The notes under the pieces: generated by a model
Told to the model about the DNA's origin: nothing
The model's input: only the letters and a program-made list of their open reading frames with translations
The model's database searches: none
Assembly (NCBI GenBank): GCA_029287195.1
Contig: JARFRN010000039.1
Coordinates: 1,927 to 65,926 of the forward strand
DNA: 64,000 bases
Source of the DNA: Acidimicrobiia bacterium
Lineage (GTDB): Bacteria > Actinomycetota > Acidimicrobiia > Spongiisociales > UBA5794
Direction of reading: 5' to 3'
Part shown: positions 10,862 through 53,821 of the stretch, piece after piece
Layout: the number at the start of each line of letters is the position of its first letter
Numbering within the stretch: the stretch's first letter is position 1
Program-made: the position numbers and the translations under genes

Positions 10862-11755
10862 GTGCCTGAAGAAACAATCGCTGCCGCAGAAGGAGTCGCC
10901 GAGAAGGAGTTCCCGATTGTGCGCAAGGGATACGACCCCGAGGGGGTCGATGCACACCTTGCCGAGATCGACGTGGCCTTTCGCGAACTCGAGGATTATG
11001 CGGCGCGCCTCAAGCACGAGTTGGCCGAGGCCAAGAACGAAATCAAGCGACTCGAGGCAGCCGAGCAGGAGTCGGTCGACAAGGCCATGCTTGCCGTGTT
11101 CGACGCCAAAGAGCGAGTCCTGGAACGGGCTCGCCAGAAGGCTCGGGATATCGAAAACGAGGCACGAATCGCCGCTGGATTGGCGCCCCTCCTCGAAGAC
11201 GAAAGTACGGACTACGACGATGCGGAACTCGATGAGCTGGCCGGCGTCGTGAAGGCGGACACGCAGCAGCCCGCCCCGATTGTTGTTGAGCAGCCGGTAC
11301 CGGTCGCGGCGCCCGCCCAACCGTCAGTTCCCGGAGCGGGCACGGCTGCATCCGGTCCCGACCCCACCGAGGTTCTGCGCCAGATGCTGCACGAGGCCGA
11401 CGCCATCAGGTCTCAACTGGAGAGCGGCCTGTCGTCGGCATTCGACGAGATAGAGCGCATGCAGCGTACCGCTGAGCAACGGGCGGCGGCGATGCTCGAC
11501 GAAGCCCGTCGCGAGGCCTCGGCGCTGCGCACCGCCGGCAAGGATGGAGGCGATGCCGCCTCGATGATCAACGTCACGCTCGCCGGCGAGGGCAAGGAAG
11601 AGAAGAGATCTCGCTACTCGAAGAACTCGGCGAAGTTACCGAGAATCGGGGAAGACGCGGGAGAGTCCGTGCTGGCGAGCATGAATCAGCTGCGAAACAA
11701 GCTGCGCGAGGCCGAAGCCGTAGCACAGAGGGTTCAGGAACCGTCGGCGTCGTAA
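10862..11755 (+). CDS. DivIVA-domain protein (coiled coil)
   Basis: 297 aa. N-terminal FPIVRKGYDPEGVDAHLAEID is the DivIVA signature, followed by coiled-coil and Ala/Pro-rich regions. Confidence 0.8.
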   Translation: MPEETIAAAEGVAEKEFPIVRKGYDPEGVDAHLAEIDVAFRELEDYAARLKHELAEAKNEIKRLEAAEQESVDKAMLAVFDAKERVLERARQKARDIENEARIAAGLAPLLEDESTDYDDAELDELAGVVKADTQQPAPIVVEQPVPVAAPAQPSVPGAGTAASGPDPTEVLRQMLHEADAIRSQLESGLSSAFDEIERMQRTAEQRAAAMLDEARREASALRTAGKDGGDAASMINVTLAGEGKEEKRSRYSKNSAKLPRIGEDAGESVLASMNQLRNKLREAEAVAQRVQEPSAS

Positions 11756-12143
11756 CCTTCGTCTCGGGCCGCTGCGGGGTCGGCCAAGGATCTCAGAACC
11801 TCTGCGCAGCGGACGGAAGGTCCCAAATGGGTCCATGCAGACCGTGACGATCAAACATGGCTACCGCTTCGGCTTGGGTCCATTTCCGCCAATCGGTGTC
11901 CAGGTAGTGGCCATATCACTCTCGTGCGAAGTGCCAGATCTGCGCAGCCGGGCGTACCTCGCCTTGCGTCTTTCCGTGGCTATCACACCATGGACCGACC
12001 GCTCCGCGATCCCGAAACAGCAACATCCGTCGCACTTGGATATGACGTTGTCCGATGCCCTCGTCATCGGCACCGGGAAATGGATCACGTATTCGGTATC
12101 CAGCAGGCGGCCTCCTTCGATGAAGACCCATAGATGGGCAGCG

Positions 12144-12851
12144 CTAGAGAACCACAGCTGCAGTTCCGGGGCGCAATACCTCGATCGCTGCTTTGAGCCG
12201 GAGCGCCGCCGCCTTCTCCTCGTCGGTGCCGACCTTGGTGATGGCGACGACCACTCTGCTCGCCACAGGGCACGCACTCAGAGCGCCTGCGGGATGCAGC
12301 ACGACGGCGGCGCAATCCGCTGCAGTCAGGACGTGATCGGAACCGGTTTCGAGAAATCTCTGAGCGACCTCGGCGCGGTGGGTTACCTGCGTCAGCGGGT
12401 GTCCCACGGCGTCGATCCCAACGAGGATCACAACGGTGGTGGTGGCCGTGGGTATAACCGGCTCATGTTCGGCCGGGGCCTTGAGAGGTCTTCCCTTGGA
12501 GCCGTCGGCTTCGACGATGACGTAGTCCACGCCGGATGTCGCATAGAGGTCGTCGACTACATCCGGAGGTGGACCGGTCACCTTGTGATCATCGCCGTAG
12601 GTCAGCAGCATCACCGGGCCCGGCTCGTCCAGCGCAGCGGCCACGCAAGCCGTATCGGCCGACCAACAGACCGTGGGAACCGCGAGCACCTGGTCTCGGC
12701 CCATCTTGGTCGTGGTGGTGAGGATCACCTTGTTGCCGGCAGCGGTCAACTCATCGCCCAGCCGGAAGAGCAGGGTCGACTTGCCGCCGCCCCCGACCAG
12801 CGAAACCAGCTCGCGCCGACCCAATCCGAGCTGGCTTGCTACAGGAGTCAC
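12144..12851 (-). CDS. yqeC: YqeC-family putative selenium cofactor biosynthesis protein
   Basis: The ORF track gives 12144..12983. I prefer GTG 12851..12849, which forms a GTGA overlap with the yqeB stop. LGLGRRELVSLVGGGGKSTLLFRL...KVILTTTTKM is a P-loop-like motif plus the TTTT(K/H) signature typical of YqeC. Confidence 0.8.
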   Translation of the reverse strand: MTPVASQLGLGRRELVSLVGGGGKSTLLFRLGDELTAAGNKVILTTTTKMGRDQVLAVPTVCWSADTACVAAALDEPGPVMLLTYGDDHKVTGPPPDVVDDLYATSGVDYVIVEADGSKGRPLKAPAEHEPVIPTATTTVVILVGIDAVGHPLTQVTHRAEVAQRFLETGSDHVLTAADCAAVVLHPAGALSACPVASRVVVAITKVGTDEEKAAALRLKAAIEVLRPGTAAVVL

Positions 12852-13657
12852 TGCGGGCGGGTTCCCATCCAGGTCAGAATGGCCTCGACGACTCCGCCGC
12901 CGATAGCCAGTGCCTTGTCTGAGATCTCGAAGCAAGCCGAGGTGTCGCCGCGTGGATCGATGTCTGCGATCTTCCAATCCCATTCCACCTCGTACCTCGG
13001 CGCCAGCAACCCACGAACCACTCCACCGATGCGCGACCTGACCGGAACCCCGTTGATGTCGCCCAGTACATCACCCGCAGCCACCAAATCGCCGATCGCT
13101 ACTTTCCAGTTGAGAATGCCGAAGGTGGGGGCGCGTACGACGCGCTCGACAGTCTTGCCTCCAACTATCCCGGGTTCACCGGTGTTCGGCGTCGGGCTGC
13201 CCTCCCATATCACCCGGCCGAGGAAATGACCCCGCATGGTTTCGATGACTGCGTGACAGTCCACACCGGCTGTGAAACCGGGTCCCAGACCGACGACAAG
13301 CGGTGCGTCGTGGATCGAGGTGTCGAGGTTCTGCTTCGCCAGGCGGGCGTCGACCACCACCGATGGCTCCCACGGGAGTTGTAGGAGTGACGGGCTGACC
13401 ATCACCGGGATCGCTCCGGACTTCGCTACCTCCAATGCTTCCTCTATGTCCTCGATCAGGATGGCATCCAGGTCTTCGATCAGCGCCCGGCCTTCGATTA
13501 CGGCGGATGCCACTGCCACCGTGCGCCGAATGGCAAGCGGCCGCTCCAACTCGAGTACCAGGATCGGAAAACCGGCGCGCCGCAAGCGAAAGACCGTTCC
13601 CGTGGCGAGATCGCCGCCGCCTCGCACTACCACGAGGTCATCACCGAAGAGCATCAA
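12848..13657 (-). CDS. yqeB: YqeB-family (EF2563-like) SDMH system accessory protein
   Basis: 269 aa. DLVVVRGGGDLATGTVFRLRRAGFPILVLELERPLAIRRTVA is the family N-terminal signature as I recall it. 4-nt overlap with the xdhC stop. Confidence 0.8.
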   Translation of the reverse strand: MMLFGDDLVVVRGGGDLATGTVFRLRRAGFPILVLELERPLAIRRTVAVASAVIEGRALIEDLDAILIEDIEEALEVAKSGAIPVMVSPSLLQLPWEPSVVVDARLAKQNLDTSIHDAPLVVGLGPGFTAGVDCHAVIETMRGHFLGRVIWEGSPTPNTGEPGIVGGKTVERVVRAPTFGILNWKVAIGDLVAAGDVLGDINGVPVRSRIGGVVRGLLAPRYEVEWDWKIADIDPRGDTSACFEISDKALAIGGGVVEAILTWMGTRPQ

Positions 13658-14440: not shown

Positions 14441-17353
14441 TCAACTCGTTTGTAGCGCGTCCCATACCCGCTGCGGGGTGAAGGGCAGGTTGTCGATTGG
14501 GACACCGGTTGCGTTGAATATCGCGTTGCGGATCGCCGGGGCAACCCCATCCTTCGGTATCTCCGCGATTGCCTTGGCGCCGAAAGGCCCGGATTTCTCC
14601 ATCGTCTGCACGAGGTAGGCCTCGATGGCGGGCATCTCATCTGCGCGATAGATCTTGTAGGGCCCGAAGCGAGCGTTGACCATGCGGCCGGTCTCGTCGA
14701 GCACCATTTCCTCGCAATGCCCATAGCCGAGTGCCTGCACCATGCCGCCCTCGACCTGGCCTGCGGAGGTCAACGGATTGATCGGCACTCCACAGTCGAC
14801 GGCCATCACCAGCCTCTCCACGGTGACCTGACCGGTCTCGATATCGACTTCGACTTCTGCGAACTGGGCGGCATAGGGGGGTGGGGAGTCCGGAGCCACA
14901 TACGACGCGGTCGCCATTATCTGGTGTTGATCATCCTGGTGCAGCGTGTGGAGGGCGATCTGCTCCAGCGACATCGATCTCCCATCGGGTGCGAAAGCGG
15001 CTCGTTCCTTCAGCTCGATGTCGCCGGGCACATCGACATCGAGTAGCAACGCAGCCCGCGTGATGATCTGCCGGCGCACCTCCTCGGCGGCCTTCTTGAC
15101 GGCCATGCCGGACACGTATGTGGTCGACGATGCGTAGGCGCCGACATCGAAAGGCGTCATGTCGGTATCCGCCGCATACACCACAACGTCGGCGGTAGGA
15201 ACACCGAGCACCTCGGCCGCCATCTGCGCCAGGATCGTATCGGCACCGGTTCCGAGATCGGTGGCTCCGATCAGTAGATTGAACGATCCGTCATCGTTGA
15301 TCTTGATGCTGGCACCACCCATATCGAGCCCTGAGATTGCGCTGCCGTGCATACACATCGCAAAGCCGAGGCCGCGTCGGATGTGGGGGCGGTCGGCGGG
15401 CTGTAGCCAATCAAGCTCGTGCCGGCGGTGCCATCCCACCGCTCGTTGACCCTGAACAACGCATTCGTCCATTCCGCTTGAAGTAACGACTGGGATGAAC
15501 TTCATGTCGGCGGCGCCCTCGCCGAGTTCGGCGGCCACATCCAGCGGGTCTCCCACTTTGGTCCAGTTCTTGCGGCGGAACTCCAGAACATCCATGCCCA
15601 TCTCGGTCGCGATGTCCTCCATATGTGCCTCGAGGGCGAAGAGTGCTTGTGGTGCCCCGTACCCGCGGTAGGCGCCGGCAACCGGCGTGTTGGTGTAGGC
15701 GACGTCGCAATCGAACTTCTTGTTGGGGCAGTTGTAGGTGCTGAGCCCGCGCAGGCCGCTGACCATCTGCACCGTGAGTGCGTGGGTCCCGTAGGGGCCG
15801 GTGTTGCCGACGGTGCGCATCTTCTGTGCGACGAGCGTGCCATCGTTCATGACACCGGTGGTGAAGGTGATTGTCTGCGGGTGACGAGTCCTGCTGGAGA
15901 CGAACTCCTCCTCACGGTTCAACTCGAGACGGACTGGTCGGCCTGTTGCCAGCGCAAGATGACCGACAACGTCTTCGATGAGCATTTCTTGCTTGACTCC
16001 AAAGCCGCCGCCGATGCGTGGCTTCACGATGCGGATGTCGCGCACCGGCATGCCGAGCAACGGCGCCACCATGCGCCGCACGTGGAACGGAACCTGGGTT
16101 GAAGTGCGGATAACCAATCGCTCGTCGCTGTCCAGCCAGGCGATGGCGATGTGGGGTTCAATCGGGCACTGCTGGACTTGGTGAACCCGGAAGCTCTTCT
16201 CGAAAACGCGGTCGGCGCTCTCCAAACCGGCGACGAAGTCTCCGACCTCTGCCTCGATGTGCTGCACGATGTTGCGCGCTGCATCGTGGGCGCCTTCCAT
16301 GTCCGGTTCGTCGTGGATCACGGGGGCATTGCCTGCGATCGCTTCGTTCTCGTCGAACACGGCGGGGAGCACCTCATATTCGACGTTGATCAGCTTGACC
16401 GCTTGCTCGGCGATCTCGATGCTCTCTGCGGCGACGGCCGCCACCCGATCGCCAACGTGCCGAACCTTGTTGTCAAAGCTCACCTGGTCGTAGGGCAGCG
16501 GGTTGGGGTAGCTCTGGCCGCCAGAGGCATACCTCACCCGCTCCACGTTCTCATGATGCAGCACCGCGTGCACCCCGGGCAGTGCCCGGGCTGCCGAGTC
16601 GTCGATACTCATGATGCGAGCGTGTGCGTGCGGGCTGTAGAGCATCTTGGCGTACAACATGCCGCGCCGCTCGATGTCGTCGACGAATGCGGCGTGGCCC
16701 TTTGCCAACTTGACCGCGTCGACTTTCCTTTCCGGCTTGCCGACGACGTTGGTCTCTGGCACCTCCGGGCTGGGTATCACGCGGGGCGATAGCGGAGGCA
16801 GGTTGAGTGGGGAGTTGGCGGCTCCCATGTCGGGTGTGCCGCCGGGCTCTACGAGCGGTTCGATCAACGCGGGTTCGACGGGAGCGACTTTTTCGCCACG
16901 CAAGATCGCCGCGGCGCGCAAAACGGCGTGTACCGGACGGAGGTAGCCGGTTTCTCGGTCGAGGATTCCCGACAGCGCGTCCCGGACATCGTCCTCGGTA
17001 GGGTCCGGGTTGCCGTCGATCAGTGCCTTAGCCGCAAGGATCATCGCGGGCGTCGAATAGCCGGATTGGATGGCCCCAGTTTCGACGAACGCCTCCTGGA
17101 TCGGGTGCAGGCCGCGGGGCGGATTGAGCCCTTCGACCGTCTCGATCTCGTGGCCGTCGGCCTGGGCTGCGAGCATGATCTCAGCGGAGATCAGCCGGCC
17201 GTCGCATAGCACTGCGGCCGCTCCGGTTTCGCCGGTCTCGGCACCAAACCGAACGCTGTAGTAGCCCTCGCCCCGCAGCACCGCGCGCAACGACTCATGA
17301 GGCCGGCAGTCGAAGGTCTGCTCGGTGCCGTTGAGGGTGAAAGTGACCTTCAC
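14441..17353 (-). CDS. XdhD-type molybdopterin hydroxylase large protein with a degenerate, Cys-poor 2Fe-2S-like N-domain
   Basis: 970 aa. The MoCo domain is well conserved (HVGDRVAAVAAES, RIGGGFGVKQE, AYRGYGAPQ, GPFGAKAIAEI). The N-domain keeps the ferredoxin-like spacing, but it reads IQSGYSTPAM and SGILDRETGY where the paralog at 495 has QCGFCTPG and CRCTGY. Confidence 0.88.
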   Translation of the reverse strand: MKVTFTLNGTEQTFDCRPHESLRAVLRGEGYYSVRFGAETGETGAAAVLCDGRLISAEIMLAAQADGHEIETVEGLNPPRGLHPIQEAFVETGAIQSGYSTPAMILAAKALIDGNPDPTEDDVRDALSGILDRETGYLRPVHAVLRAAAILRGEKVAPVEPALIEPLVEPGGTPDMGAANSPLNLPPLSPRVIPSPEVPETNVVGKPERKVDAVKLAKGHAAFVDDIERRGMLYAKMLYSPHAHARIMSIDDSAARALPGVHAVLHHENVERVRYASGGQSYPNPLPYDQVSFDNKVRHVGDRVAAVAAESIEIAEQAVKLINVEYEVLPAVFDENEAIAGNAPVIHDEPDMEGAHDAARNIVQHIEAEVGDFVAGLESADRVFEKSFRVHQVQQCPIEPHIAIAWLDSDERLVIRTSTQVPFHVRRMVAPLLGMPVRDIRIVKPRIGGGFGVKQEMLIEDVVGHLALATGRPVRLELNREEEFVSSRTRHPQTITFTTGVMNDGTLVAQKMRTVGNTGPYGTHALTVQMVSGLRGLSTYNCPNKKFDCDVAYTNTPVAGAYRGYGAPQALFALEAHMEDIATEMGMDVLEFRRKNWTKVGDPLDVAAELGEGAADMKFIPVVTSSGMDECVVQGQRAVGWHRRHELDWLQPADRPHIRRGLGFAMCMHGSAISGLDMGGASIKINDDGSFNLLIGATDLGTGADTILAQMAAEVLGVPTADVVVYAADTDMTPFDVGAYASSTTYVSGMAVKKAAEEVRRQIITRAALLLDVDVPGDIELKERAAFAPDGRSMSLEQIALHTLHQDDQHQIMATASYVAPDSPPPYAAQFAEVEVDIETGQVTVERLVMAVDCGVPINPLTSAGQVEGGMVQALGYGHCEEMVLDETGRMVNARFGPYKIYRADEMPAIEAYLVQTMEKSGPFGAKAIAEIPKDGVAPAIRNAIFNATGVPIDNLPFTPQRVWDALQTS

Positions 17354-18093
17354 GCGGTACCTCCCAGTAGGTCGACGATTCTGGTGGTTAGCGTCCCGGC
17401 CAGCTCCTTGCGGTATTCCGGAGTGCCGCGAAAGTCTCCCGGAGGTTCGAGTGACTCCACGTCCGCCGGGTCGATCACAACAGGGTGAGCTGCGACCCCG
17501 GTCAGGCCGAGGCGCACACCGCTCGCCACCACCCTGCCCAATGCAGCAACTATGGACGTGTCCGCCGGGGTGCGACCTGACCGTGCCGAAGCCGTCTCGC
17601 CACTCGGATCGGCCGAAATTGACGTGATGATGCCCCTCTCCGCGAGAGACGAGTCGCCGAGAAGCTCTTCCAGCGACACCTCGACAACGTGATCCGGGAG
17701 TGCAATCTTGACACAGGCGTCGTGGACGAGGAGGGCGGCCACCAGCTCGCTCTCCCAGTGGGCACTTGCCACGGTACCGCCGATGGTGGCCGCGTTGCGT
17801 AACGTGTTGGGTCCCTCGCGTCGCGCAGTCTCAGCGAGGAGTGGAGGAGTGGCGGGATGGTTGATCAAATCCTGGAGCCGCACCATTGCGCCGTAGCGGA
17901 TCCGCGTAGGGCTTGCTTCGATTGAGGCTTCGACACAAGCCTGGATGTCGACAGCTTCGGCTTCTGTCTCCAGGGACCCTGCTCCGATTACAGTGCCGCC
18001 GCCGACGACGACGCTCGTTACATAGTCACGGTTGAGTAGTGCCAGCGCCTCATCCAATCCGCTTGGTCGGTGGTAACCGGTGATTGCCTGCAT
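17350..18093 (-). CDS. FAD-binding subunit of a molybdopterin dehydrogenase (YgfM/CoxM-like)
   Basis: 247 aa. MQAITGYHRPSGLDEALALL...VVGGGT...IRYGAMVRLQDL...RNAATIGGTVA. 4-nt overlap with the downstream hydroxylase gene. SD GGGAG lies 8 nt upstream. Confidence 0.85.
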   Translation of the reverse strand: MQAITGYHRPSGLDEALALLNRDYVTSVVVGGGTVIGAGSLETEAEAVDIQACVEASIEASPTRIRYGAMVRLQDLINHPATPPLLAETARREGPNTLRNAATIGGTVASAHWESELVAALLVHDACVKIALPDHVVEVSLEELLGDSSLAERGIITSISADPSGETASARSGRTPADTSIVAALGRVVASGVRLGLTGVAAHPVVIDPADVESLEPPGDFRGTPEYRKELAGTLTTRIVDLLGGTA

Positions 18094-44990: not shown

Positions 44991-46025
44991 ATGCGAGCGT
45001 ACGAGCTCTCCAGACCGGGCCCGGTAGAGGTGCCTCGCTTGCATGCGGCGGATCGGCTCGACTTCGAACCGGCTGCCGGCGAGGTGTCCATCGATGTCGC
45101 TGTCTGTGCAGTCTGTCGAACCGATCTGCAGATCGTCGAGGGAGACCTCACCGCACGTCGGCTGCCTATCGTCCCCGGTCATCAGGCAGTCGGTCGGGTG
45201 CGCGCGATCGGTCCGGGAGTTGAAGGGTGGCAGCCGGGCGACCGGGTTGGCGTGGCCTGGCTGGGTGGAGCCTGCGGATCATGCCCGCGGTGTGACGAGG
45301 GGCTGGAGAACCTTTGCGAGCAGGCGAAATTCACCGGGTGGGACCGCGACGGTGGCTTCGCCGAGTCGATGTCCGCCCGGGCAGATTACGTCTATCGCAT
45401 CCCCCCGGCCTTCAGCGATGCCGAGGCGGCGCCACTGTTATGCGGCGGCATAATCGGCTATCGATCGCTCCGTATCGCAGGTATCGAACCGGGGGGCCGG
45501 CTCGGGCTGTATGGCTTCGGCGCCTCGGCGCTGCTTGCGCTGCAGGTTGCCCGCCACTGGGGGTGTGAGCTCTTCGTCGCGACCCGGTCACGGGCCGAGC
45601 AGGCGCGGGCATTGGAGATGGGTGCGGTGTGGGCGGGCTCCTACCACGAGCAGCCCCCGGTGGCACTCGACGCTGTAGTCACCTTTGCCCCAGTTGGGTT
45701 TGTCGCAATCGAGGCCCTCAAGGCGCTACGCCCCGGCGGCACCGTCGCCATCAACGCAATTCACCTCGACACGGTGCCGGAATTCCCCTACGAGTTGCTG
45801 TGGATGGAGCGAGGGATTCGCAGCGTCGCCAATTTCAGCAGGCGGGACGCCGAGGAGTTCCTCCGGCTCGCCGCCGAGATACCCATAACGACCGTGGTCG
45901 ATCCCTACCCGTTGGCCGATGTGAACGTTGCCTTGCGTCGACTCAAGACGGGCGAGGTCGAAGGAGCGGCAGTGCTCGTCACGAAGCAGCACCGTTCAGG
46001 TCGAATCGGTGGATTGCCGGTCTAG
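44991..46025 (+). CDS. zinc-dependent medium-chain alcohol dehydrogenase/reductase
   Basis: CAVCRTDLQIVEG, GHQAVGRV, structural-zinc CGSCPRCDEGLENLC, and Rossmann LYGFGASA. The start could be 44970. Confidence 0.88.
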   Translation: MRAYELSRPGPVEVPRLHAADRLDFEPAAGEVSIDVAVCAVCRTDLQIVEGDLTARRLPIVPGHQAVGRVRAIGPGVEGWQPGDRVGVAWLGGACGSCPRCDEGLENLCEQAKFTGWDRDGGFAESMSARADYVYRIPPAFSDAEAAPLLCGGIIGYRSLRIAGIEPGGRLGLYGFGASALLALQVARHWGCELFVATRSRAEQARALEMGAVWAGSYHEQPPVALDAVVTFAPVGFVAIEALKALRPGGTVAINAIHLDTVPEFPYELLWMERGIRSVANFSRRDAEEFLRLAAEIPITTVVDPYPLADVNVALRRLKTGEVEGAAVLVTKQHRSGRIGGLPV

Positions 46026-47114
46026 CGCAACTGCACCTGCGAGGAAGATCGGTACCAATGCGAATGCATAGCGAATCTCGATGACTCGATCGAGCACGCC
46101 AAGCAAGGTCGGCGTCACCGTGATCGCTACTCCCGAGGCAAAGGCCGCCAGTGCGATGAGCCGTGGTTCGGGCAGCGCCGGGTCGTCGAGAAGACGCGCC
46201 AGTGACACCGGGTAGAGAACTGCGATTCCCAATCCGGCGAGCGTCATCGCTACGACCAGGAGCTGTGCCGGTAGATCGGGTATCACCACCAGGGCCGCAG
46301 CCCCGCAGACGAGCGCCCCCAATGCGACCGGGTCGAGCCGTCCCAAGGATCGAGGCCCGATGAGCCGGCCCACCGCCATTCCGATGGCAAAGGAGGCTGC
46401 CAGTCCGCTCGCTGCATCCACCTCGACCCCGGAGTCGACCAAGCGAGCTGCCCCCCAGGTCCAGAAGCAGAATTCTGCCGATACGGCGAGGACGATGACC
46501 GACCAACGTCGCCAGGTGTTTGCGGTCATCCTTTCAGCTTTTACCGCTTCATTTGCAGAAGGGCGGTCGATTCCGAGTCCCTCCGAAGCGCGCACCCGAC
46601 GGACCGCCACTATCACCAACCAGAACGCGGGCACGATCAGACCAACGCGGCCGGTCGTGAACCGTCGATCGGAGAGAGCAATCACCGCCGGGGCCGCCAG
46701 CCCGGCGATCGACGAGACTCCGACCGCCATGGCAAGTCGCCCGGCGCGATGCTCGACGCCGATGAGCGCCGGGGTCGCTATCAAGAACGCCGCACAGCCT
46801 ATGCCTTGAAGTAGTCCACCGGCAACGAGCAGCGGAACGGTGCTTCCGAAACCGAGCAGCAGCACGCCGGCAGTCACGACGACGGCTCCGACCCGGGTGA
46901 CCGGTTCCGCCCCGTGGCTGAGGATGCGGCGCCCCAGGAATCCCGCCCCGAGCAGCCCAAATCCGAATGCGGAGCCCAGCCATGCGAGTTGATATCGCGG
47001 GACATCGAGATCGCGCGCGCCGAGCACGAGTACCGGCCCTAGTCCGCCGATGCACCAGCCGATGGCAGCTTGGATCGCGAGGGCGTGGCGATCGCGGGCA
47101 ATCCGCTGCAACAT
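45996..47114 (-). CDS. MFS transporter
   Basis: About 12 hydrophobic segments. Preferred start MLQRIARDRHALAI (47114); the ORF track goes to 47264. The 3' end overlaps the convergent ADH gene by 30 nt. Confidence 0.7.
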   Translation of the reverse strand: MLQRIARDRHALAIQAAIGWCIGGLGPVLVLGARDLDVPRYQLAWLGSAFGFGLLGAGFLGRRILSHGAEPVTRVGAVVVTAGVLLLGFGSTVPLLVAGGLLQGIGCAAFLIATPALIGVEHRAGRLAMAVGVSSIAGLAAPAVIALSDRRFTTGRVGLIVPAFWLVIVAVRRVRASEGLGIDRPSANEAVKAERMTANTWRRWSVIVLAVSAEFCFWTWGAARLVDSGVEVDAASGLAASFAIGMAVGRLIGPRSLGRLDPVALGALVCGAAALVVIPDLPAQLLVVAMTLAGLGIAVLYPVSLARLLDDPALPEPRLIALAAFASGVAITVTPTLLGVLDRVIEIRYAFALVPIFLAGAVALDRQSTDST

Positions 47115-47296
47115 TGTCACCGACACCGACCCTCGAGGCGCATGATTGCGAGTGTAAGGCACGGCCTTTGCGGGTCGGTTGCCAAGGACCTCGATCCGGC
47201 GGCAGGGCCCGGGTGGCCTTCCCTCGCCGTTCTTGCGTGACTGGTGGCCGGCGATATCGGCCATGCCCTATCGCGCGCCCGCTCCGCAGGAACGGA

Positions 47297-48757
47297 TCAA
47301 TCGAGTCCGACGCGCTCGTTGAACTGCTCGATGAGTTCGTCGATGGGGTCGGCCAGGGCTTGGATGCTGGTCCAGTACTCGGGGTCGTACCACTGCGCCT
47401 GGATCTCCTCGTAGGTCTTGCCCTGCTGTTCGACCCAGGTGTAGTACTTCAGGTTGTGAACCCGCTTCTTGTCGTAATAGGTCCACTCCTGGACATGGTC
47501 GATCCCAGTCCCATACAGGTAGCGAGCCGCGGTGGCCGTAGCATCCATCCTCGTGTACTCGCCCCGCTCCTCGGTGAGCTCACCAAGACGTGACCCGTAC
47601 ATCTCCATCGAGTCGGTACCAAGCGTCACGATGACGTCGTTGCCGGTCAATTCGTAGTACTTGGCCATCTTGATGGCCATCAGCATGTTGCCCACGCCGG
47701 AGATCCCGAGCAGCCGCAGGTTTTCGACGAGATCTGAGTCAACACCCATGTCGGCCAGAAACTCTTGGCCGTTCGGCTCGTTGAACAACCGGATGATCGA
47801 CATCGTCGCCTCGTCGTCGATGCCGATCGCCAGATCGGTGTTCTTGACGTTGTGGATCCACGGGATGTGCTTGTCCCCGATGCCCTCGATGCGGTGCTCG
47901 CCGAACCCGTTGTACAGAATCGTCGGGCACTGCACTGCCTCACCGGCGGCGATCTTCGACGTTGGGTACAGCTGCTTCAGGTAATCGCCAGACGCGATTG
48001 TCCCGGCAGAACCGGTGGTCAAGGTAACTCCGGCGAACCTGTCGTTTTCACCCAGTACCTCGTTGAGCACCTCGACCATGGCCGGGCCGGTGATCGAGTA
48101 GTGCCACAGGTAGTTGCCGAACTCTTCGAACTGGTTGAAGATCACCAGGTCTTCGCCCGATTGCCGTAGCTCGTTGCACTTGTCGAAGATCTCCTTGACG
48201 TTCGACTCTGTGCCCGGTGTCTTGATGATCTCGCCGGCAACGCTGTCCAACCACTGGAAGCGCTCGGCACTCATGCCTGCCGGCAGGATGGCGATCGACT
48301 CGCACGCCAATAGATTGGAGTCGTAGGCCCCGCCGCGGCAGTAGTTGCCGGTTGACGGCCACACCGCCTTCTGGGTGACCGGATCGAATTGACCCGTCAC
48401 CAGACGAGGAACAAGGCAGCCAAACGCTGCACCCACCTTGTGGGCTCCGGTCGGGAACCACTTGCCCTCCAGCATGATGATCCTGGCGTCTACGCCGCTG
48501 ATTTCAGAAGGAATCTCCAGGTAGTTGACCGGCCCGAACCCGCCACCATGTGGAGTGGGTTCGTTGTGCCAGTTGATACGAAACAGGTTCAGGGGATCCA
48601 GATCCCACAAGCCAATGTTCTCGAGTTGGGTCTTGATCGAATTGGGAATCAGCGAAGGATCGCGCATCTGCTTGAACGTCGGGATCCGGATCGATCTTTC
48701 GTGAGCTCGGCTTGCTGCCGACTCCAGCGTCGCCTCATGCATCGTGAGATCGATCAT
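47297..48757 (-). CDS. fold-type-II PLP enzyme, long form (TrpB/cysteine-synthase superfamily; OrtB-like by recollection)
   Basis: 486 aa. GKWFPTGAHKVGAAFGCLVP (Schiff-base Lys context), WPSTGNYCRGGAY, TTGSAGT (phosphate loop). Confidence 0.7.
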   Translation of the reverse strand: MIDLTMHEATLESAASRAHERSIRIPTFKQMRDPSLIPNSIKTQLENIGLWDLDPLNLFRINWHNEPTPHGGGFGPVNYLEIPSEISGVDARIIMLEGKWFPTGAHKVGAAFGCLVPRLVTGQFDPVTQKAVWPSTGNYCRGGAYDSNLLACESIAILPAGMSAERFQWLDSVAGEIIKTPGTESNVKEIFDKCNELRQSGEDLVIFNQFEEFGNYLWHYSITGPAMVEVLNEVLGENDRFAGVTLTTGSAGTIASGDYLKQLYPTSKIAAGEAVQCPTILYNGFGEHRIEGIGDKHIPWIHNVKNTDLAIGIDDEATMSIIRLFNEPNGQEFLADMGVDSDLVENLRLLGISGVGNMLMAIKMAKYYELTGNDVIVTLGTDSMEMYGSRLGELTEERGEYTRMDATATAARYLYGTGIDHVQEWTYYDKKRVHNLKYYTWVEQQGKTYEEIQAQWYDPEYWTSIQALADPIDELIEQFNERVGLD

Positions 48758-48770
48758 GTTTCTTGTCCCT

Positions 48771-50027
48771 TCATTGGTGTCCCAATGCTTCTTTGAGTGC
48801 GTCCAGGGTGGGGTCGATGTACATCGGTTTGGTGCCGGCGGCGGTCACCGCCTTCATCGCCGAGGCAACGTCTTTTAGTCCGCTACCCGTTGAGAGTACG
48901 ACAACTTCGTCGCTTGGGGAGACCAGACCCCGGTCGACCGCTGCGATCAACCCGGCGTATGCCGCAGCCCCGGCAGGCTCGGCAAAGACGCCGGCGCCAC
49001 CTGCCATTGCCGGCACCGCATCCAGGATGTCATCATCGCTTACTCGAATGTAAGCGCCGCCGGTTTCTGTGACCGCCCGCATCGCCTTGATGCGGTCGCG
49101 GGGTAGATCGGCACTGATCGAGTCGGCGACGGTGTCGGCTGCGATGGGCGGCTTGGTCAGAACGTCGTCTCCCGATTCGTAGGCCTGCACCATGTAGTCG
49201 CTGCCCGCCGATTGGATGCCGTACAGGCGCGGTGGCTCGTCGATCCAGCCCAGGCTGAGGGCGTCTCTCATCGCCTTGTGCACGCCGCCGATGATCGAGC
49301 CATCGCCGACACTGACAAAGATGGCGTCGGGGGTGCTCCATTCCAGATCTTCGAGTATCTCGAAACCGGCGGTCTTCTTGCCCTCGGTCATGAATGGGTT
49401 GAAACCGGTGTTGCGGTTGTACCAGCCGTACGCTTCCGCGGCGAGCATGCAGAGCTCGAAGCTCGCGTTGTAGTTGCCGTTGACCAGGGCGACGGTGGAG
49501 CCGTAGGCGAGTAGCTGGGCGATCTTGGCCTCGGGCGCAGTCTTGGGGACGAAGATGACGTTCTTCTGCCCGACACTCGCTGAGATCCCCGCAAGCGCCG
49601 CCGCCGCGTTCCCGGTGCTGGCCGTCGTGATGACCCCGGCGCGGCGTTCTTGGGCCTTGACCACGGCCATCGCGGAAGCGCGATCCTTGAGCGACGCCGT
49701 TGGCTGGCGTCCCTCGTCCTTGACCCACACCTTGGCGATGCCGAGATCGGCAGCGAGCGGTGCCGCGTCGTACATCGGAGTTCCGCCAACGGTGAGCGGC
49801 GGGACTGAAGCGTCGGGCCGCACCGGCAACAGCGGCCGGTAGCGCCACATGGTGCGATTGCGGTTGGCGTCGAGATCTTTCTTGGTCCAGCTGCTGGCAA
49901 TCCGCTCGTAGTCGTAGCGGACGTCGAGGATGCCCTCATTGCCATGATCAGTACAGACGTACCCGGCGAAATCCGCCGGGTACGTCTTGTCACAAATCAC
50001 ACAGGCGAAGCCTGTGACATTGCTCAT
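48771..50027 (-). CDS. threonine-synthase-like PLP enzyme with an N-terminal zinc-ribbon
   Basis: 418 aa. FACVICDKTY...YVCTDHG. PTASLKDRAS (PLP Lys). TASTGNAAAALA. STGSGLKD. 4-nt overlap with the carbamate kinase gene. Confidence 0.8.
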   Translation of the reverse strand: MSNVTGFACVICDKTYPADFAGYVCTDHGNEGILDVRYDYERIASSWTKKDLDANRNRTMWRYRPLLPVRPDASVPPLTVGGTPMYDAAPLAADLGIAKVWVKDEGRQPTASLKDRASAMAVVKAQERRAGVITTASTGNAAAALAGISASVGQKNVIFVPKTAPEAKIAQLLAYGSTVALVNGNYNASFELCMLAAEAYGWYNRNTGFNPFMTEGKKTAGFEILEDLEWSTPDAIFVSVGDGSIIGGVHKAMRDALSLGWIDEPPRLYGIQSAGSDYMVQAYESGDDVLTKPPIAADTVADSISADLPRDRIKAMRAVTETGGAYIRVSDDDILDAVPAMAGGAGVFAEPAGAAAYAGLIAAVDRGLVSPSDEVVVLSTGSGLKDVASAMKAVTAAGTKPMYIDPTLDALKEALGHQ

Positions 50028-50965
50028 CGCACGATCCGAGTTCCAGTTTCGCCGGCCATGGCCCGTTCCAGGTTCTCCGGATTGGTGATCAAGGCCTCCT
50101 TGCCACCGGCCTCGAGGAACTGCACGACGGCACGCATCTTCGGCGCCATCGAGCCCTCGGCGAAATGACCTCCCTCGGCGAGGTACTGCTTGACCTCATC
50201 GAGGGTGAACTGCGCAACCCACTCCTCGTTCTCCTTCCCGAAATTGAGCGCTACCTGCTCGACCGCAGTCGAGATCAGTAGCAGGTCGGCATCCACCTGG
50301 CTGGCCAGCAGCGCCGAGGCCAGGTCCTTGTCGATCACGGCGGGGATTCCCCGCAAGTCGCCGTTCTCGTCGGCGACGACGGGTATCCCACCGCCGCCGA
50401 CGGCGATGGTGACGACGCCGGCGTCGAGTAGTTGCTTGATCACCTCGAGTTCGACGATGCGCATCGGCCTGGGTGAAGCGACGACTCGGCGCCAGCCGCG
50501 GCCGGCGTCCTCCTTGACGTCCCAGCCATCCTCGTCGCGCCGCTTGATGGCCTGGGCCTCGTCCATGAACGAGCCGATCGGCTTACTCGGGCTGTCGAAG
50601 GCGGGATCCGTGGCGTCGACCTCGACCTGGGTGACGACCGTGGCGACACTCTTGTTGACGCCCCGCTGGCGGAAATCGTTCACTAGGTTCTGCTGCAGCA
50701 TGTAGCCGATGGCGCCCTGGGTGTCGGCTCCGCAGTAGTCGAGCGGGATCTCGTGGAGCTCGCTGCTGGCCATCTCGGAACGGCGGAGGATGAAACCAAC
50801 CTGCGGGCCGTTGCCGTGCGAAATCGCCACGTCCCAGCCCGCCTCTACGAGCGATGCAATGTGTTCATCGGTCTCCGCCGCAGCCAGGTACTGGTCCTGT
50901 ACCGACGTGTGATCGGCATCGGGGATCAGCGAGTTGCCGCCGATGGCGATTACGGCCCGTGGCAT
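50024..50965 (-). CDS. arcC: carbamate kinase
   Basis: The ORF track extends to 51550 through an Arg-rich overlap. ATG 50965..50963 shares one nt with the upstream stop. MPRAVIAIGGNSL...ISHGNGPQVG...GGGGIPV. Confidence 0.9.
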   Translation of the reverse strand: MPRAVIAIGGNSLIPDADHTSVQDQYLAAAETDEHIASLVEAGWDVAISHGNGPQVGFILRRSEMASSELHEIPLDYCGADTQGAIGYMLQQNLVNDFRQRGVNKSVATVVTQVEVDATDPAFDSPSKPIGSFMDEAQAIKRRDEDGWDVKEDAGRGWRRVVASPRPMRIVELEVIKQLLDAGVVTIAVGGGGIPVVADENGDLRGIPAVIDKDLASALLASQVDADLLLISTAVEQVALNFGKENEEWVAQFTLDEVKQYLAEGGHFAEGSMAPKMRAVVQFLEAGGKEALITNPENLERAMAGETGTRIVR

Positions 50966-51915
50966 TACTCCCACACTCCGAGGATGGAGGACAGGAGCGC
51001 CATACGCATGACGACCCCGTTGTACGCCTCTTGCCAGTAGCGGGCATGCTTGAGGTCGTCGACCTCGGGAAGCAGTTCGTCCCGGCGGGGGAGCGAGTGC
51101 AGCACGATCGAGCTGCCCTTCGCCTTCTTCATGACCTCCTGGGTCACCTGGTAATTGGCTGCGGTTCGGGCATAGACCTCGGCCTTGTCCTGACGAGCCT
51201 TCGTGTAGTCGGGTTGGACGACCGGTTCCATGTAGATGACGTCGGTGTCGGCGATTGCCTCGTCGATGTGCTCGACGATGCGATAGTTGGTGCCCTTCTC
51301 GTCGAGTTCGGCAAGGAACTCGGGGAGTGGCGACATCTCGTCCGGCGCCAGGATGACCATCTCGGCATCGAACTGCGACAGCGCATAGCCGAGTGAATGC
51401 ATGGTGCGCATACGGTGGTCTCCCACGGCGAGAAAGCTCTTGCCGTCGACCGAGCCCATCTCCTTGGTAACGGTGTAGAGGTCGGTGAGAACCTGTGTGG
51501 GGTGTTCGCCCCAGCCGTCGCCGCCGTTGATGACGGGGATGGAGGACCACTTGGCGGCTTCATGCGGGGCACCCTGGTCGTAGTGGCGCATGACGATGAC
51601 GTCACCGTAGAACTCCAGCATGTGCACGGTGTCCTTGATCGACTCCTGATAGAAGTCGCCGGCTCGGGTCATTTTGGCGTCGGCGAAGCCTGTGACGTGA
51701 CCGCCGAGGCGATGCATGGCAGCCTCATGGGCGAGCCGGGTTCGCGTCGACGGCTGATAGAAGGCTGTGACGAGAGTCTTGTGAGCGAGCATGTCGGAAT
51801 TGCGACGCTCGCGAGCGATGGGCTCCACCCGGTCGGCAATCTCGAACAGGTGCATGAACTCGTTGCGTTCGAAATCTTTCAAAGACAGGATGTCCCGTCC
51901 CGCAAAACTGCGCAT
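50965..51915 (-). CDS. aspartate/ornithine carbamoyltransferase family protein, PyrB-like but with a divergent second-substrate loop
   Basis: 316 aa. FYQPSTRTR, MRH, GEHPTQVLTDL, HSLPR. It has MTRAGDFYQESIKDT where ATCases carry the S..KGE...DT loop. Confidence 0.8.
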   Translation of the reverse strand: MRSFAGRDILSLKDFERNEFMHLFEIADRVEPIARERRNSDMLAHKTLVTAFYQPSTRTRLAHEAAMHRLGGHVTGFADAKMTRAGDFYQESIKDTVHMLEFYGDVIVMRHYDQGAPHEAAKWSSIPVINGGDGWGEHPTQVLTDLYTVTKEMGSVDGKSFLAVGDHRMRTMHSLGYALSQFDAEMVILAPDEMSPLPEFLAELDEKGTNYRIVEHIDEAIADTDVIYMEPVVQPDYTKARQDKAEVYARTAANYQVTQEVMKKAKGSSIVLHSLPRRDELLPEVDDLKHARYWQEAYNGVVMRMALLSSILGVWE

Positions 51916-52028
51916 TTCGTCGGCCCTCCTTAAGAGCGTGGAATGACACGATTTGTGCCACGAGCCTCGTCTTCAGGCTCGGCCCGTCGGAGTGTGGCAT
52001 TTGCACTCCTTTTGGGGTCTTGTTCAAT

Positions 52029-52055
52029 TGGTCATACTATACTACAATATGATCA
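52029..52055. promoter_or_regulatory. AT-rich inverted repeat TGGTCATA-N11-TATGATCA (candidate GntR/HutC operator) in the divergent promoter region
   Basis: tggtcatactatactacaatatgatca. The arms match 7/8 and contain GT..TA..AC-like half sites. It lies 25 nt upstream of the gntR start and about 115 nt upstream of the carbamoyltransferase start. This is the most AT-rich stretch I saw in the window. Confidence 0.5.
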
Positions 52056-52080
52056 CAGTACTGGCTAGTCCCGATTTCAG

Positions 52081-52809
52081 ATGATCACTCGAAACCCGTC
52101 ACTCACCGATCAGGTCAAGGCTCACATCAAAGAGCAGATCGTCAATGATGAGTTCGCAGACGGGCGAATACCGCCGGAAGCCACCCTGGCTGAGGATCTT
52201 GGCGTTAGCCGAACCACGATTCGGGACGCGCTCGGCAAGCTCGAGCACGAAGGTGCCATCTACCGCAAGCAGGGCGCCGGGACCTTCGTCAATCAGGCCG
52301 GCCTCCAGATCAAGTCCCGGCTCGAGGAGATCTGGTCCTATGAACAGGTACTCGAGGACCACGGCTACAAGCCTTCGGTAAGGGTGCTCACCGACGAGAT
52401 TTTCCCGGTCAACCCAGAGACCGCCGAGGCGCTGCAGTTGGATGAGGGCGACGAGGTGCTGGTGATCGAGAAGGTCTTCCTGGAGAACTCGACCCCGGTC
52501 GTGCTGACGCGGAACCGGATTCCGGCAGCCTTGCTCTTGGGATCCGATCGCAAGCGGAAGGACCTCCCCATCTATGAGTACTTGGAGGAGTACTGCGACC
52601 GCCGCCTCAGCTATTACCTGTCTGAGATCGTGCCTGTATCTCTAGATGCAGATCAGGCGGCGAAGCTCGGGGTGAAGGAGGGAACTCTCGGGCTCTCGTT
52701 CGTCGAGGTGGGATATGACCAGAACAACGAGGCGATCGTGCATGCCACCTCCTACTTCCGAGATGACTTGCTCCGTTTCCGTCTGATTCGACGAAGGGCC
52801 GGGGCTTAG
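52081..52809 (+). CDS. GntR family regulator, HutC/UTRA subfamily
   Basis: 242 aa. HTH LPPEATLAEDLGVSRTTIRDALGKLEHEGAIYRKQGAGTFV. C-terminal UTRA-like domain. Confidence 0.88.
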   Translation: MITRNPSLTDQVKAHIKEQIVNDEFADGRIPPEATLAEDLGVSRTTIRDALGKLEHEGAIYRKQGAGTFVNQAGLQIKSRLEEIWSYEQVLEDHGYKPSVRVLTDEIFPVNPETAEALQLDEGDEVLVIEKVFLENSTPVVLTRNRIPAALLLGSDRKRKDLPIYEYLEEYCDRRLSYYLSEIVPVSLDADQAAKLGVKEGTLGLSFVEVGYDQNNEAIVHATSYFRDDLLRFRLIRRRAGA

Positions 52810-52846
52810 GGCAATGAGAACGGCAAACCGCAAAGGAGAGCAGTAA

Positions 52847-53821
52847 ATGCAGACACATCTGCATGGTCGTGACATGATCACGACCCAGGAATGGACCAAG
52901 GACGAGCTCGACACGATCATCGATGTCGCGCTGGATCTGAAGCGGCGCCGGGCTCTCGGCGAGCAGCATGCGTTGCTGGACAACAAGGTGTTGGCGATGC
53001 TGTTCTTCTTCTCGAGCACCCGGACCCGAGCCAGCTTCGAGGCCGGCATGGCTCAACTCGGAGGGCATGCGATGTTCCTCGACTCGACCAGCACCCAAAT
53101 CGGCCACGGTGATACGTGGAAGGAGATCGGCGAAATCCTCGGCCGCTACAACGACGGCATCGCCATCCGCAACGTCGACTGGGACATCGGCAACAAGTAC
53201 ATCCGCGCCGTTGCCGAGGCCAGCCGGACTCCGGTGCTCAACATGCAGTGCGACTGGTATCACCCGTTCCAGGCGCTTGCCGACCTGTTGACCGTCATCG
53301 AGCAGAAGGGCGATCCCCGCAAGCTGACGTTCAACATGAGCTACGCCTATGCGGCCAGCTATCAGAAGCCGATCAGTGTCCCGCAGTCGGTCATTCTGCT
53401 GATGACTCGCTACGGCGCCAATGTGCGGCTGACCCGCCCGCCTGAATTCAAGCTGTATCCGGAGATCGTTTCCCAGGCCGAGGAGAATGCCAAGAAGGCT
53501 CACGGCAGCTTCGAGATCTTCGAGGACTTCGAGGAGGGCATGGCCGGCGCGGATGTTGTCTATGCCAAGGCGTGGGGCTCGATGCTGACCACCTCCGACC
53601 ATGAGGAGTCGGCGAAGATCTCCGAGAAGTACACGGACTGGATCGTCGATGCCCGCCGTATGGAGATGGCCGATGAGGACGCCATCTACATGCACCCGCT
53701 GCCGGCGGACCGCAATATCGAGGTTGCAGACGAGGTCATCGACGGCCGCTGGAGCCGGGTCTTCGACCAGGCCGAGAACCGGCTGCATGCGCAGAAGGCC
53801 GTCATGGCTTTGACCATGTAG
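52847..53821 (+). CDS. ygeW: YgeW-like carbamoyltransferase (short form)
   Basis: 324 aa. FFFSSTRTR, QCDWYHPFQALADL. YAYAASYQKPISVPQSVILLMTRYG closely parallels the YgeW region I recall (WAYSPSYGKPLSVPQGIIGLMTRFG). MHPLPADR. AAGGAGAG SD. Lies 37 nt after gntR. Confidence 0.75.
   Translation: MQTHLHGRDMITTQEWTKDELDTIIDVALDLKRRRALGEQHALLDNKVLAMLFFFSSTRTRASFEAGMAQLGGHAMFLDSTSTQIGHGDTWKEIGEILGRYNDGIAIRNVDWDIGNKYIRAVAEASRTPVLNMQCDWYHPFQALADLLTVIEQKGDPRKLTFNMSYAYAASYQKPISVPQSVILLMTRYGANVRLTRPPEFKLYPEIVSQAEENAKKAHGSFEIFEDFEEGMAGADVVYAKAWGSMLTTSDHEESAKISEKYTDWIVDARRMEMADEDAIYMHPLPADRNIEVADEVIDGRWSRVFDQAENRLHAQKAVMALTM

Follow-up and report, generated by a model that had tools for sequence, protein, structure and literature searches.

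A candidate lower half of the reductive urate pathway, built from different parts, in an Acidimicrobiia genome

Six genes that, together, have the look of machinery for drawing energy from ureido compounds lie between positions 47,297 and 53,821 of the DNA examined here: a 64,000-nucleotide stretch ('the window' in what follows) of an Acidimicrobiia bacterium (assembly GCA_029287195.1, contig JARFRN010000039.1, positions 1,927 to 65,926). Four of the genes form an operon. They encode a carbamoyltransferase related to aspartate carbamoyltransferase (ATCase), which we call A; a carbamate kinase, B; and two pyridoxal phosphate (PLP) enzymes, C and D, one with the fold of threonine synthase (ThrC) and the other with the fold of cysteine synthase (CysK). 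Divergent from these are a GntR/HutC-type regulator and a second carbamoyltransferase, G, of the YgeW family. We consider it likely that the six genes represent the lower half of the reductive urate pathway, in a new variant, because genes for the upper half are present in the same genome, because related modules lie next to such genes in other phyla, and because the distributions of the module's enzymes complement those of YgeY and YgeX.

The reductive pathway, which runs via 2,8-dioxopurine, has been established in Escherichia coli and gut clostridia (two 2025 preprints, and a commentary). Urate is converted to 2,8-dioxopurine by XdhD-YgfM or XdhAC, the ring is reduced by YgfK or UacX, and 2,3-diureidopropionate is produced by HyuA (2025 preprints). 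YgeW phosphorolyses one ureido group—the two research groups disagree on which—and YqeA uses the carbamoyl phosphate to make ATP; activity of this kinase with YgeW has been shown only for the E. coli pair. The other ureido group is hydrolysed by YgeY, and diaminopropionate is converted to pyruvate by YgeX (2025 preprints). The intermediates, as published, have the R (D) configuration, and the phosphorolysis catalyzed by YgeW is noted to be thermodynamically unfavourable (2025 preprints). The pathway is portrayed as a trait of selected anaerobes. One of the preprints surveyed its variants by scoring neighbourhoods by Pfam family alone, such that PF00185 stood for 'YgeW' and PF00291 for 'YgeX'; an F420-dependent oxidoreductase in place of YgfK has been reported for Chloroflexota (2025 preprint). 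Neither preprint mentions an ATCase-type transferase or enzymes like threonine synthase or cysteine synthase, and the variant we describe is undescribed in the literature that we searched.

The source genome is a metagenome-assembled genome (MAG) of 3.59 Mb in 305 contigs, 83% complete and with 2.4% contamination. Families were assigned with the hidden Markov models (HMMs) of Pfam and NCBIfam against curated cut-offs; scores below are in bits, with the cut-off in brackets. Proteins of related loci, and then proteins of E. coli K-12, were compared with the whole MAG by tblastn, and genes in the GC-rich loci were called with a caller based on the G+C content of third codon positions. Two samples underlie the counts. 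One comprises 301 species genomes of Actinomycetota, 17 of which—the source genome and 16 others—carry D. The other comes from searching 185,579 species genomes with an alignment of D, which revealed at least 597 carriers; cross-phylum counts refer to those loci, 45 in number, where D has 6 kb or more of sequence to either side. Numbers preceded by L, C, G and f are our handles for loci, contigs, genomes and families.

Two carbamoyltransferases and one kinase

Transferase A belongs, by descent, among the ATCases. It scores 260.8 against TIGR00670 (236.95) and 237 against NF002032 (263), its best solved relative is the ATCase of P. abyssi, and it shares 37% of its residues with E. coli PyrB, which is more than can be said of the canonical PyrB of the same genome. 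In a maximum-likelihood tree whose outside references are E. coli PyrB, ArgI and YgeW only, the A family falls within the ATCase side with support of 100/100. The residues that accommodate carbamoyl phosphate (STRTR, HPTQ and R105) are all kept, as is R167, the ligand of the alpha-carboxylate in ATCases. The loop that in ATCases holds the beta-carboxylate of aspartate, by way of R229 and Q231, is a different matter: YMTRVQKER of E. coli PyrB is replaced by YMEPVVQPDYTK (YMEPVVQPDY), and both residues are lost. Moreover, HPLPR has become HSLPR, and the 80s loop has been remodelled to KMTRAGDFYQESIKD, with K84 not conserved. These three features—the loop EPVVQPDY(TK), HSLPR and the remodelled 80s loop—are identical in 23 of 23 members of the A family, from several phyla. 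An ordinary pyrB that happens to lie inside one of the sampled loci retains YVTRVQKER and HPLPR, instead.

A and YgeY exclude each other. None of the seven A-bearing Actinomycetota has YgeY. In all eight Actinomycetota that carry a G-like gene but lack A, YgeY is present and exceeds its cut-off; a single family, f38, includes both states. Across phyla, A is present in 11 of the 45 loci and true YgeY in five, never together. Because the two never co-occur, A probably takes over the step that YgeY performs elsewhere, by phosphorolysis rather than hydrolysis, which would deliver a second carbamoyl phosphate and a second ATP. To judge from its residues, the pocket of A would fit an alpha-N-carbamoyl amino acid that has no beta-carboxylate, namely 3-amino-2-ureidopropionate, and this fit would favour an order of events in which the 3-ureido group is cleaved first.

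Transferase G falls below every NCBIfam cut-off: 271 for ornithine carbamoyltransferase (OTC; 306), 241 for N-acetylornithine carbamoyltransferase (288), 255.7 for TIGR00658 (280.85), and below that for putrescine carbamoyltransferase (PTC), too. It is nonetheless the best match of E. coli YgeW in the MAG (35% identity), and the G family forms one clade with E. coli YgeW and gut-actinobacterial YgeW, supported at 97/93, apart from the OTCases. Motifs common to G and YgeW include AYxxSYxKPxSVPQ, YxKxW (where OTCases have DVWxSMG), QIxHG(E/D)T and HxLPAD. The DxxxSMG loop and the HCLP of OTC are both missing from G, which reads YAKAWGSML and HPLPAD at these places, and so are the insertions of YgeW (324 versus 396 aa). 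In seven genomes of f10 Actinomycetota, SsnA and YgeX flank a G-family gene, which thus occupies the slot of YgeW; YgeY and HyuA are close by. We propose that G is the equivalent of YgeW, phosphorolysing one ureido group of 2,3-diureidopropionate.

The identity of B is straightforward. It scores 377.9 against TIGR00746 (358.25) and 388.8 against NF009007 (266), it is 50.5% identical to E. coli YqeA, and by tblastn it is the sole carbamate kinase in the MAG. Its gene overlaps that of A by TAATG and that of C by ATGA, an arrangement that amounts to translational coupling on both sides. A cluster in another genome, G028 (L060:6784-16055), bears on the same subject. It contains two G-like transferases in tandem, together with a carbamate kinase, HyuA, 8-oxoguanine deaminase, and a CysK (316 bits) that adjoins a C-type enzyme, in a genome that has neither YgeY nor YgeX. 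This has the appearance of a separate, independent solution with two transferases, in which a normal CysK takes the place of D.

Much of this had been anticipated by an earlier, sequence-only reading of the window. All six open reading frames are where that reading put them. The ATGA between B and C is found at 50027-50024, and the 13-nt gap that it reported separates the stop codon of C (48773-48771) from the ATG of D (48757-48755). The junction of A and B, which it gave as TGATG, is TAATG instead (stop codon TAA, 50967-50965; ATG, 50965-50963), and an overlap of 1 nt remains. Its view that the substrate loop of A is not that of an ATCase is borne out by YMEPVVQPDYTK, and its plan of placing both transferases in a tree puts A with the ATCases and G with YgeW, as above. 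The label 'YgeW-like' that it gave to G agrees with the tree and the motifs, although G misses the cut-offs of the YgeW models by a wide margin: 178.4 for NF005538 (453) and 166.9 for TIGR03316 (500). That two transferases imply two carbamoylated intermediates gains backing from the strict exclusivity of A and YgeY. Finally, the possibility that A is the only pyrB of the genome, which it raised against itself, is ruled out by a canonical pyrB (311 bits) in a pyrR-pyrB-pyrC operon on contig C292; an argF-type gene is present in the MAG, too.

Two PLP enzymes

Enzyme C is close to the threonine synthases, but falls just short of their models: it scores 287 against NF006050 (303) and 166.6 against TIGR00260 (167.1), and only 27.7 against the YgeX model TIGR01747. 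In threonine synthases, the motif NPxR(I/L)EGQK includes an arginine that binds the phosphate of the substrate, as reported for the T. thermophilus structure. This arginine is retained in four solved ThrCs and in the genome's own ThrC (contig C263). In C it is replaced by Met, and in all 59 of 59 family members it is Thr, Met or Leu. Loss of the arginine, together with the scores below cut-off, rules out C as a threonine synthase.

What C might be, instead, is suggested by its distribution. Across phyla, C occurs in 33 of the 45 loci and YgeX in three, never in the same locus. Among Actinomycetota, none of the 16 other D-bearing genomes has YgeX, versus 13 of 15 SsnA-positive genomes that lack D; the two exceptions among the latter, G120 and G028, have a C-type gene in the SsnA cluster. 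Because C-type or X-type genes (the latter a more divergent kind, described below) and YgeX replace each other in this way, C is the best candidate for the diaminopropionate lyase, and is likely to stand in for YgeX in the conversion of diaminopropionate to pyruvate.

D is the stranger of the two, and stands at the head of a large branch within the CysK fold. Its best family score, 74.3 against the cysK model TIGR01139, is far from the cut-off (350.95). Its AlphaFold 2 model is a confident one (predicted local distance difference test score 89, predicted template-modelling score 0.92), and the core superimposes on CysK and cystathionine beta-synthase (CBS) with template-modelling (TM) scores, normalized to the target, of 0.76-0.84 and identities of 22-25%. 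To this core are added approximately 75 N-terminal and 100 C-terminal residues, helical in both cases, some 175 in all. Neither comparison of a D-family profile with solved structures nor a fold search found anything nearer than CysK. The lysine that binds PLP (AHK107), S135-T-G-N138, N208-Q-F and G249-S-A-G-T are invariant in the family. Since these motifs serve PLP and the substrate carboxylate, D should bind an alpha-amino acid and catalyze a beta-elimination or a beta-replacement.

The best 80 of the D carriers are chiefly Chloroflexota (Anaerolineae), and the rest include Desulfobacterota, Bacillota (among them an isolate, Vallitalea maricola), Acidobacteriota, Myxococcota, SAR324, Thermotogota, Synergistota and KSB1. 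Among the 16 other Actinomycetota, 15 have D next to a PLP enzyme of zinc-ribbon type, which is either C-type or what we term X-type, the latter more divergent and with the lysine motif SGSHKARH. The tree of D has two deep clades that correspond to this choice: type 1 accompanies C-type enzymes in many phyla, whereas type 2 accompanies X-type enzymes and was seen in Actinomycetota only. D of the source genome is type 1. Transfer of the module from Chloroflexota is unsupported by this tree; the Acidimicrobiia copies are basal within type 1, the clade that spans many phyla.

We propose that D acts, together with C, on a C3 amino acid, either diaminopropionate or albizziin. How it might do so is a matter of several possibilities. 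D could be a racemase for a D-configured C3 amino acid; a lyase that eliminates urea from albizziin or ammonia from diaminopropionate; an enzyme of beta-replacement that feeds C; or a subunit of a C-D complex. The sequence-only reading placed both PLP enzymes in the slot of YgeX. For C this stands, given that no locus contains both C and YgeX and that YgeX is missing from all 16 other D-bearing genomes; for D it does not, for D appears to have an additional function.

The upper pathway, synteny and regulation

Candidates for the upper half of the pathway are present in the same genome and, for the most part, in the same window, between 495 and 18093 (Table 1). The XdhD-like and YgfM-like pair (14441-18093) are candidates for the reductase that converts urate to 2,8-dioxopurine. 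Identities to the E. coli proteins are modest: 36.7% for XdhD, 30.8% for YgfK, 32.6% for SsnA and 41% for HyuA. The HyuA-type hydantoinase lies outside the window, on contig C291 (3420-4817), and scores 543.8 against TIGR02033 (393.25). YgeY was not found in the MAG: the best match to TIGR03526 scores 61.4 (321.5), and tblastn with E. coli YgeY came up empty. A true YgeX is encoded elsewhere, at C297:13302-14570, with 467 against TIGR01747 (274) and 47% identity to E. coli YgeX. No arcA, for arginine deiminase, is present in the MAG. All told, the pathway genes are dispersed over at least four loci.

Table 1. The module, its control region, and neighbouring genes of interest in the window
Feature	Position	Strand	Size, domains and scores
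A, PyrB-like (ATCase-derived) carbamoyltransferase	50965-51915	-	316 aa; OTCace_N + OTCace
B, carbamate kinase	50024-50965	-	313 aa; TIGR00746, NF009007
C, ThrC-fold PLP enzyme with N-terminal Cys (zinc-ribbon-like) ribbon	48771-50027	-	418 aa; PALP
D, CysK-fold PLP enzyme	47297-48757	-	486 aa; PALP
GntR/HutC-type regulator	52081-52809	+	242 aa; GntR + UTRA
G, compact YgeW-family carbamoyltransferase	52847-53821	+	324 aa
Divergent control region (spacer between A and regulator)	51916-52080	.	165 bp
Major facilitator superfamily (MFS) transporter	45996-47264	-	Pfam MFS_1 46 bits; 32 nt downstream of D
Selenium-dependent xanthine dehydrogenase-like molybdenum enzyme	495-3077	+	TIGR03311 825 bits (cut-off 830)
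Short SsnA	3074-4096	+	NF005540 260 bits (cut-off 444), profile positions 58-334
YgfK	4128-7700	+	TIGR03315 907 bits (cut-off 835)
XdhD-like molybdenum hydroxylase	14441-17353	-	TIGR03313 712 bits; 36.7% identity to E. coli XdhD over 997 columns
YgfM-like FAD subunit	17350-18093	-	TIGR03312 63.8 bits

The sequence-only reading compared the module with ygeW-ygeX-ygeY-hyuA-yqeA of E. coli, as the same logic with different parts, and cited 2023 genetic studies that tie that region to anaerobic use of urate; the full biochemistry has since been published, in the 2025 preprints. That reading described the genes of the module well, and failed to tie them to the xanthine dehydrogenase (XDH), SsnA, YgfK and XdhD genes in the same window. 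With these upper genes at hand, and with homologous modules lying directly beside SsnA, XDH, YgfK or an F420 reductase, and HyuA across many phyla, its comparison is strengthened. Its statement that no hydantoinase or YgeY is encoded in the window is correct; in the genome at large, where it advised looking, HyuA is present and YgeY was not found.

Synteny points the same way. D and SsnA go hand in hand in Actinomycetota: an SsnA-like gene is present in 17 of the 17 genomes that carry D, versus some 37 of the 301 overall. In six D-bearing Actinomycetota, D and its partner are clustered with selenium-dependent XDH (Se-XDH) and SsnA, in the company of an F420-dependent luciferase-like monooxygenase (LLM) family oxidoreductase, an XdhB-type FAD subunit, 8-oxoguanine deaminase and adenosine deaminase; four of these clusters include A, two the kinase, and one G. 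Across phyla—Chloroflexota, Desulfobacterota, Bacillota, Acidobacteriota and SAR324 among them—a purine-pathway gene, be it upper or HyuA, lies within 10 kb of D in 32 of the 45 loci. The commonest operon is [A] G kinase [basic membrane protein (BMP)-type ABC importer] C D HyuA, and close to it, often, are SsnA, XDH, YgfK or an F420 reductase, adenine deaminase, and GntR/UTRA regulators. The GT2 glycosyltransferase and the 192-aa protein without Pfam match that are interleaved in Anaerolineae operons we judge to be unrelated. The order found in the window—G, GntR, and divergently A, kinase, C and D—recurs, between unrelated flanks, in two long contigs of Acidimicrobiia type, and in further MAGs (L068 and L069) besides.

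The regulator scores 60.9 against PF00392 (GntR) and 88.4 against PF07702 (UTRA), and is kept as divergent partner, at 62-67% identity, in L006, L007, L068 and L069; GntR/UTRA genes accompany the modules of Chloroflexota, too. The 165-bp spacer contains an operator-like element, ATTGGTCATACTATACTACAAT, at approximately 52027-52049, with a consensus of about TTGTAGTATAGTATGACCAAT, that is kept in the corresponding GntR-A spacers (L006:6711-6805, L007:6741-6841, L068 and L069). The GntR/HutC protein is probably a local repressor of the module.

Several further observations concern the neighbours and their variants. The MFS transporter gene is possibly co-transcribed with the D operon; it is missing from the homologous loci, and so is no conserved part of the module. 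HyuA on C291 lies about 1.8 kb from an adenosine-deaminase-like gene (C291:237-4817), and YgeX on C297 directly follows a DeoD-type purine nucleoside phosphorylase (C297:12525-14570). Just beyond the end of the window, on contig C12 (window-equivalent 64738-69635), is a gene for 8-oxoguanine deaminase, 49% identical to that of the G130 cluster, and after it come genes for the FAD, [2Fe-2S] and molybdenum subunits that make up a third enzyme of the XDH family, a three-subunit XDH. The short form of SsnA, which covers only profile positions 58 to approximately 340, occurs in 13 other Actinomycetota, and 12 of the 14 genomes that have it carry D. F420-dependent LLM oxidoreductases replace YgfK in several SsnA clusters of Actinomycetota (L026:14315-15256, L029:2524-3597, L058, L059, L062 and L063). 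In three loci, one or two genes of the nitrilase superfamily (CN_hydrolase, beta-ureidopropionase-like) and a BMP-type binding protein lie beside Se-XDH and SsnA (L028:6210-9208, L027:13324-14256 and L025:13865-16340); the genomes concerned, relatives in the same order or family, have no carbamoyltransferase and no YgeY. These CN_hydrolases may remove both ureido groups by hydrolysis alone. In f6 Acidimicrobiia, the D-X pair is surrounded by housekeeping genes (ClpP, ComM-like, DUF2461 and GGDEF/EAL) that are functionally uninformative.

Readings of the module and its known relatives

Gene identities, fold families, motif changes, synteny, and patterns of presence and absence can be assembled into a proposal for the substrates, the order of steps, the yield of ATP and the regulation. 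The XdhD/YgfM-like pair, YgfK, short SsnA and HyuA would carry urate to 2,3-diureidopropionate. G would phosphorolyse one ureido group in the fashion of YgeW, and A would phosphorolyse the other—most likely the 2-ureido group—of 3-amino-2-ureidopropionate or of 2,3-diureidopropionate, replacing YgeY. The kinase would use both carbamoyl phosphates, with ADP, to form ATP and carbamate, such that up to two ATP might be gained per urate versus one. C, with D, would convert diaminopropionate to pyruvate and ammonia, and the GntR/HutC protein would repress the unit from the conserved operator in the spacer. A sharper version of this scheme can be drawn, in which G takes the 3-ureido group and A the 2-ureido group, in that order, for two ATP per urate; and in which D catalyzes a reaction of a new class for its fold—inversion of D- to L-diaminopropionate, or elimination of urea from albizziin—that C needs and YgeX does not. 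As a whole we regard this sharper version as tentative, and rather doubtful.

A number of points weigh against a urate module of this kind. The functions of the A, C and D families are inferred from sequence, synteny and distribution, and the patterns of presence and absence come from related genomes that represent few independent events. The absences in the Acidimicrobiia MAG itself are soft, considering its completeness and contamination. The module is separated from the nearest upper-pathway gene by some 30 kb and has a regulator of its own; the operator-like element does not recur elsewhere in the genome (at up to 3-4 mismatches), the surroundings of the other pathway genes included, and the regulator thus seems to be a local one that makes no link to them. 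The source genome, unlike the 16 other D-bearing genomes tested, has a YgeX of its own, such that C and D are not strictly required here as a substitute. In three Bacillota MAGs, D adjoins a true YgeX (44-47% identical to that of E. coli), which makes D more than a YgeX substitute: in L111, L112 and L143 (approximately 10001-13000), D lies between HyuA and YgeX, carbamate kinase, SsnA, YgfK and XDH are present, YgeY is missing, and true YgeW is found in L112 only. Conversely, many Acidimicrobiia carry the D-X pair without any carbamoyltransferase. Lastly, ATCases act on L-aspartate, yet the published intermediates of the pathway are R (D) configured.

Pairs of carbamoyltransferase and carbamate kinase serve several ureide routes, and the module could degrade some other ureido compound—pyrimidine-derived N-carbamoyl-beta-alanine or ureidosuccinate, allantoin-derived oxalurate, or a citrulline-like amino acid—in which case the purine genes would be no more than associated neighbours. 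That the module has a regulator and operator to itself, and is not contiguous with SsnA and YgfK, agrees with this, and for an ATCase-like protein such as A, substrates like ureidosuccinate are conceivable. We think it improbable, all the same. Adjacency to SsnA, XDH, YgfK or F420 reductase, and HyuA is seen repeatedly, across phyla; the enzymes with which the module's distribution is complementary, YgeY and YgeX, are specific to the urate route; and A, without the arginine for a beta-carboxylate, is unlikely to use ureidosuccinate. The genome, moreover, has no arcA, which rules out the arginine deiminase route as the explanation for the kinase. A little less probable still is that G alone is catabolic and A works in the direction of synthesis, passing a carbamoyl group to another amino acceptor in a salvage shunt. 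Carbamoylation is the usual direction of ATCases, the reverse reaction with phosphate is disfavoured by thermodynamics, as noted for YgeW, and A exceeds the cut-off of TIGR00670. However, A is translationally coupled to the carbamate kinase, the genome has pyrB and argF-type genes of its own, and A is present exactly where YgeY is missing, which argues for the same substrate and the same direction.

Could the whole cluster be biosynthetic, instead, with the kinase making carbamoyl phosphate, and A, G and the two PLP enzymes, of beta-replacement type, building a ureido or diamino amino acid, albizziin-like or derived from diaminopropionate? Enzymes with the folds of CysK and ThrC are typically synthases, a relative of CysK, DcsD, makes O-ureidoserine, and no transporter is conserved in the module. 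We rate this as quite unlikely, given that regulators of HutC type are typical of catabolic operons, that the kinase belongs to the catabolic-type arcC family, that it has catabolic purine genes and ABC importers of nucleosides around it, and that neither non-ribosomal peptide synthetase nor other tailoring genes were seen in approximately 100 loci. We give almost no credence to A as a second, divergent ATCase for pyrimidine synthesis among unrelated neighbours. The score above cut-off against TIGR00670 and the 37% identity to E. coli PyrB, higher than that of the canonical PyrB, are what this idea has to offer. The canonical pyrB sits in its own pyr operon and no pyrI lies near A, however; R229 is lost in 23 of 23 family members; and the order of A with the kinase and PLP genes is conserved across phyla.

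If the urate reading is right, a lower half of different construction is common among environmental bacteria, for D by itself has at least 597 carriers among species genomes, most of them Anaerolineae, with Acidimicrobiia, Desulfobacterota, Bacillota and others besides. Purine fermentation would yield twice as much ATP at the substrate level, and three families would prove to be mislabelled in databases as aspartate carbamoyltransferase, threonine synthase and cysteine synthase. The module would also provide a direct way into the questions of which ureido group is cleaved first and what configuration the C3 intermediates have, and a set of alternative enzymes for engineered probiotics that degrade urate.

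The nearest known system is the urate pathway of E. coli, in which, as proposed here, a carbamoyltransferase and a carbamate kinase turn a ureido group of 2,3-diureidopropionate into a source of ATP. The differences are several. The module's genome lacks YgeY and has a second, ATCase-derived transferase; in place of YgeX, the module carries an enzyme of ThrC fold and a 486-aa enzyme of CysK fold; its regulator is of the GntR/HutC type, rather than the sigma-54 activator YgeV; and the pathway genes occupy no fewer than four separate loci, in an environmental Acidimicrobiia MAG rather than a gut anaerobe. The arginine deiminase, agmatine deiminase and oxalurate routes are similar in that phosphorolysis of a ureido compound is followed by substrate-level synthesis of ATP by carbamate kinase. 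Here, however, there is no deiminase, two transferases accompany a single kinase, and neither transferase reaches the cut-offs for OTC or PTC.

The individual enzymes, likewise, have familiar relatives. A has the fold and the carbamoyl-phosphate motifs of PyrB (P. abyssi 1ml4, E. coli 1d09), but neither pyrI nor a pyr operon for context, and its gene is coupled to that of a carbamate kinase, instead. C resembles YgeX/DpaL in being a PLP enzyme of fold-type II, in the position of YgeX in the cluster, but with the fold of ThrC and a zinc-ribbon-like N-terminus, and nearly always with D for company. D, in turn, shares with CysK and CBS the core fold, the PLP lysine, the STGN carboxylate loop, NQF and the glycine-rich phosphate loop, whereas its AHK motif is as in TrpB, and its context is the catabolism of purines.

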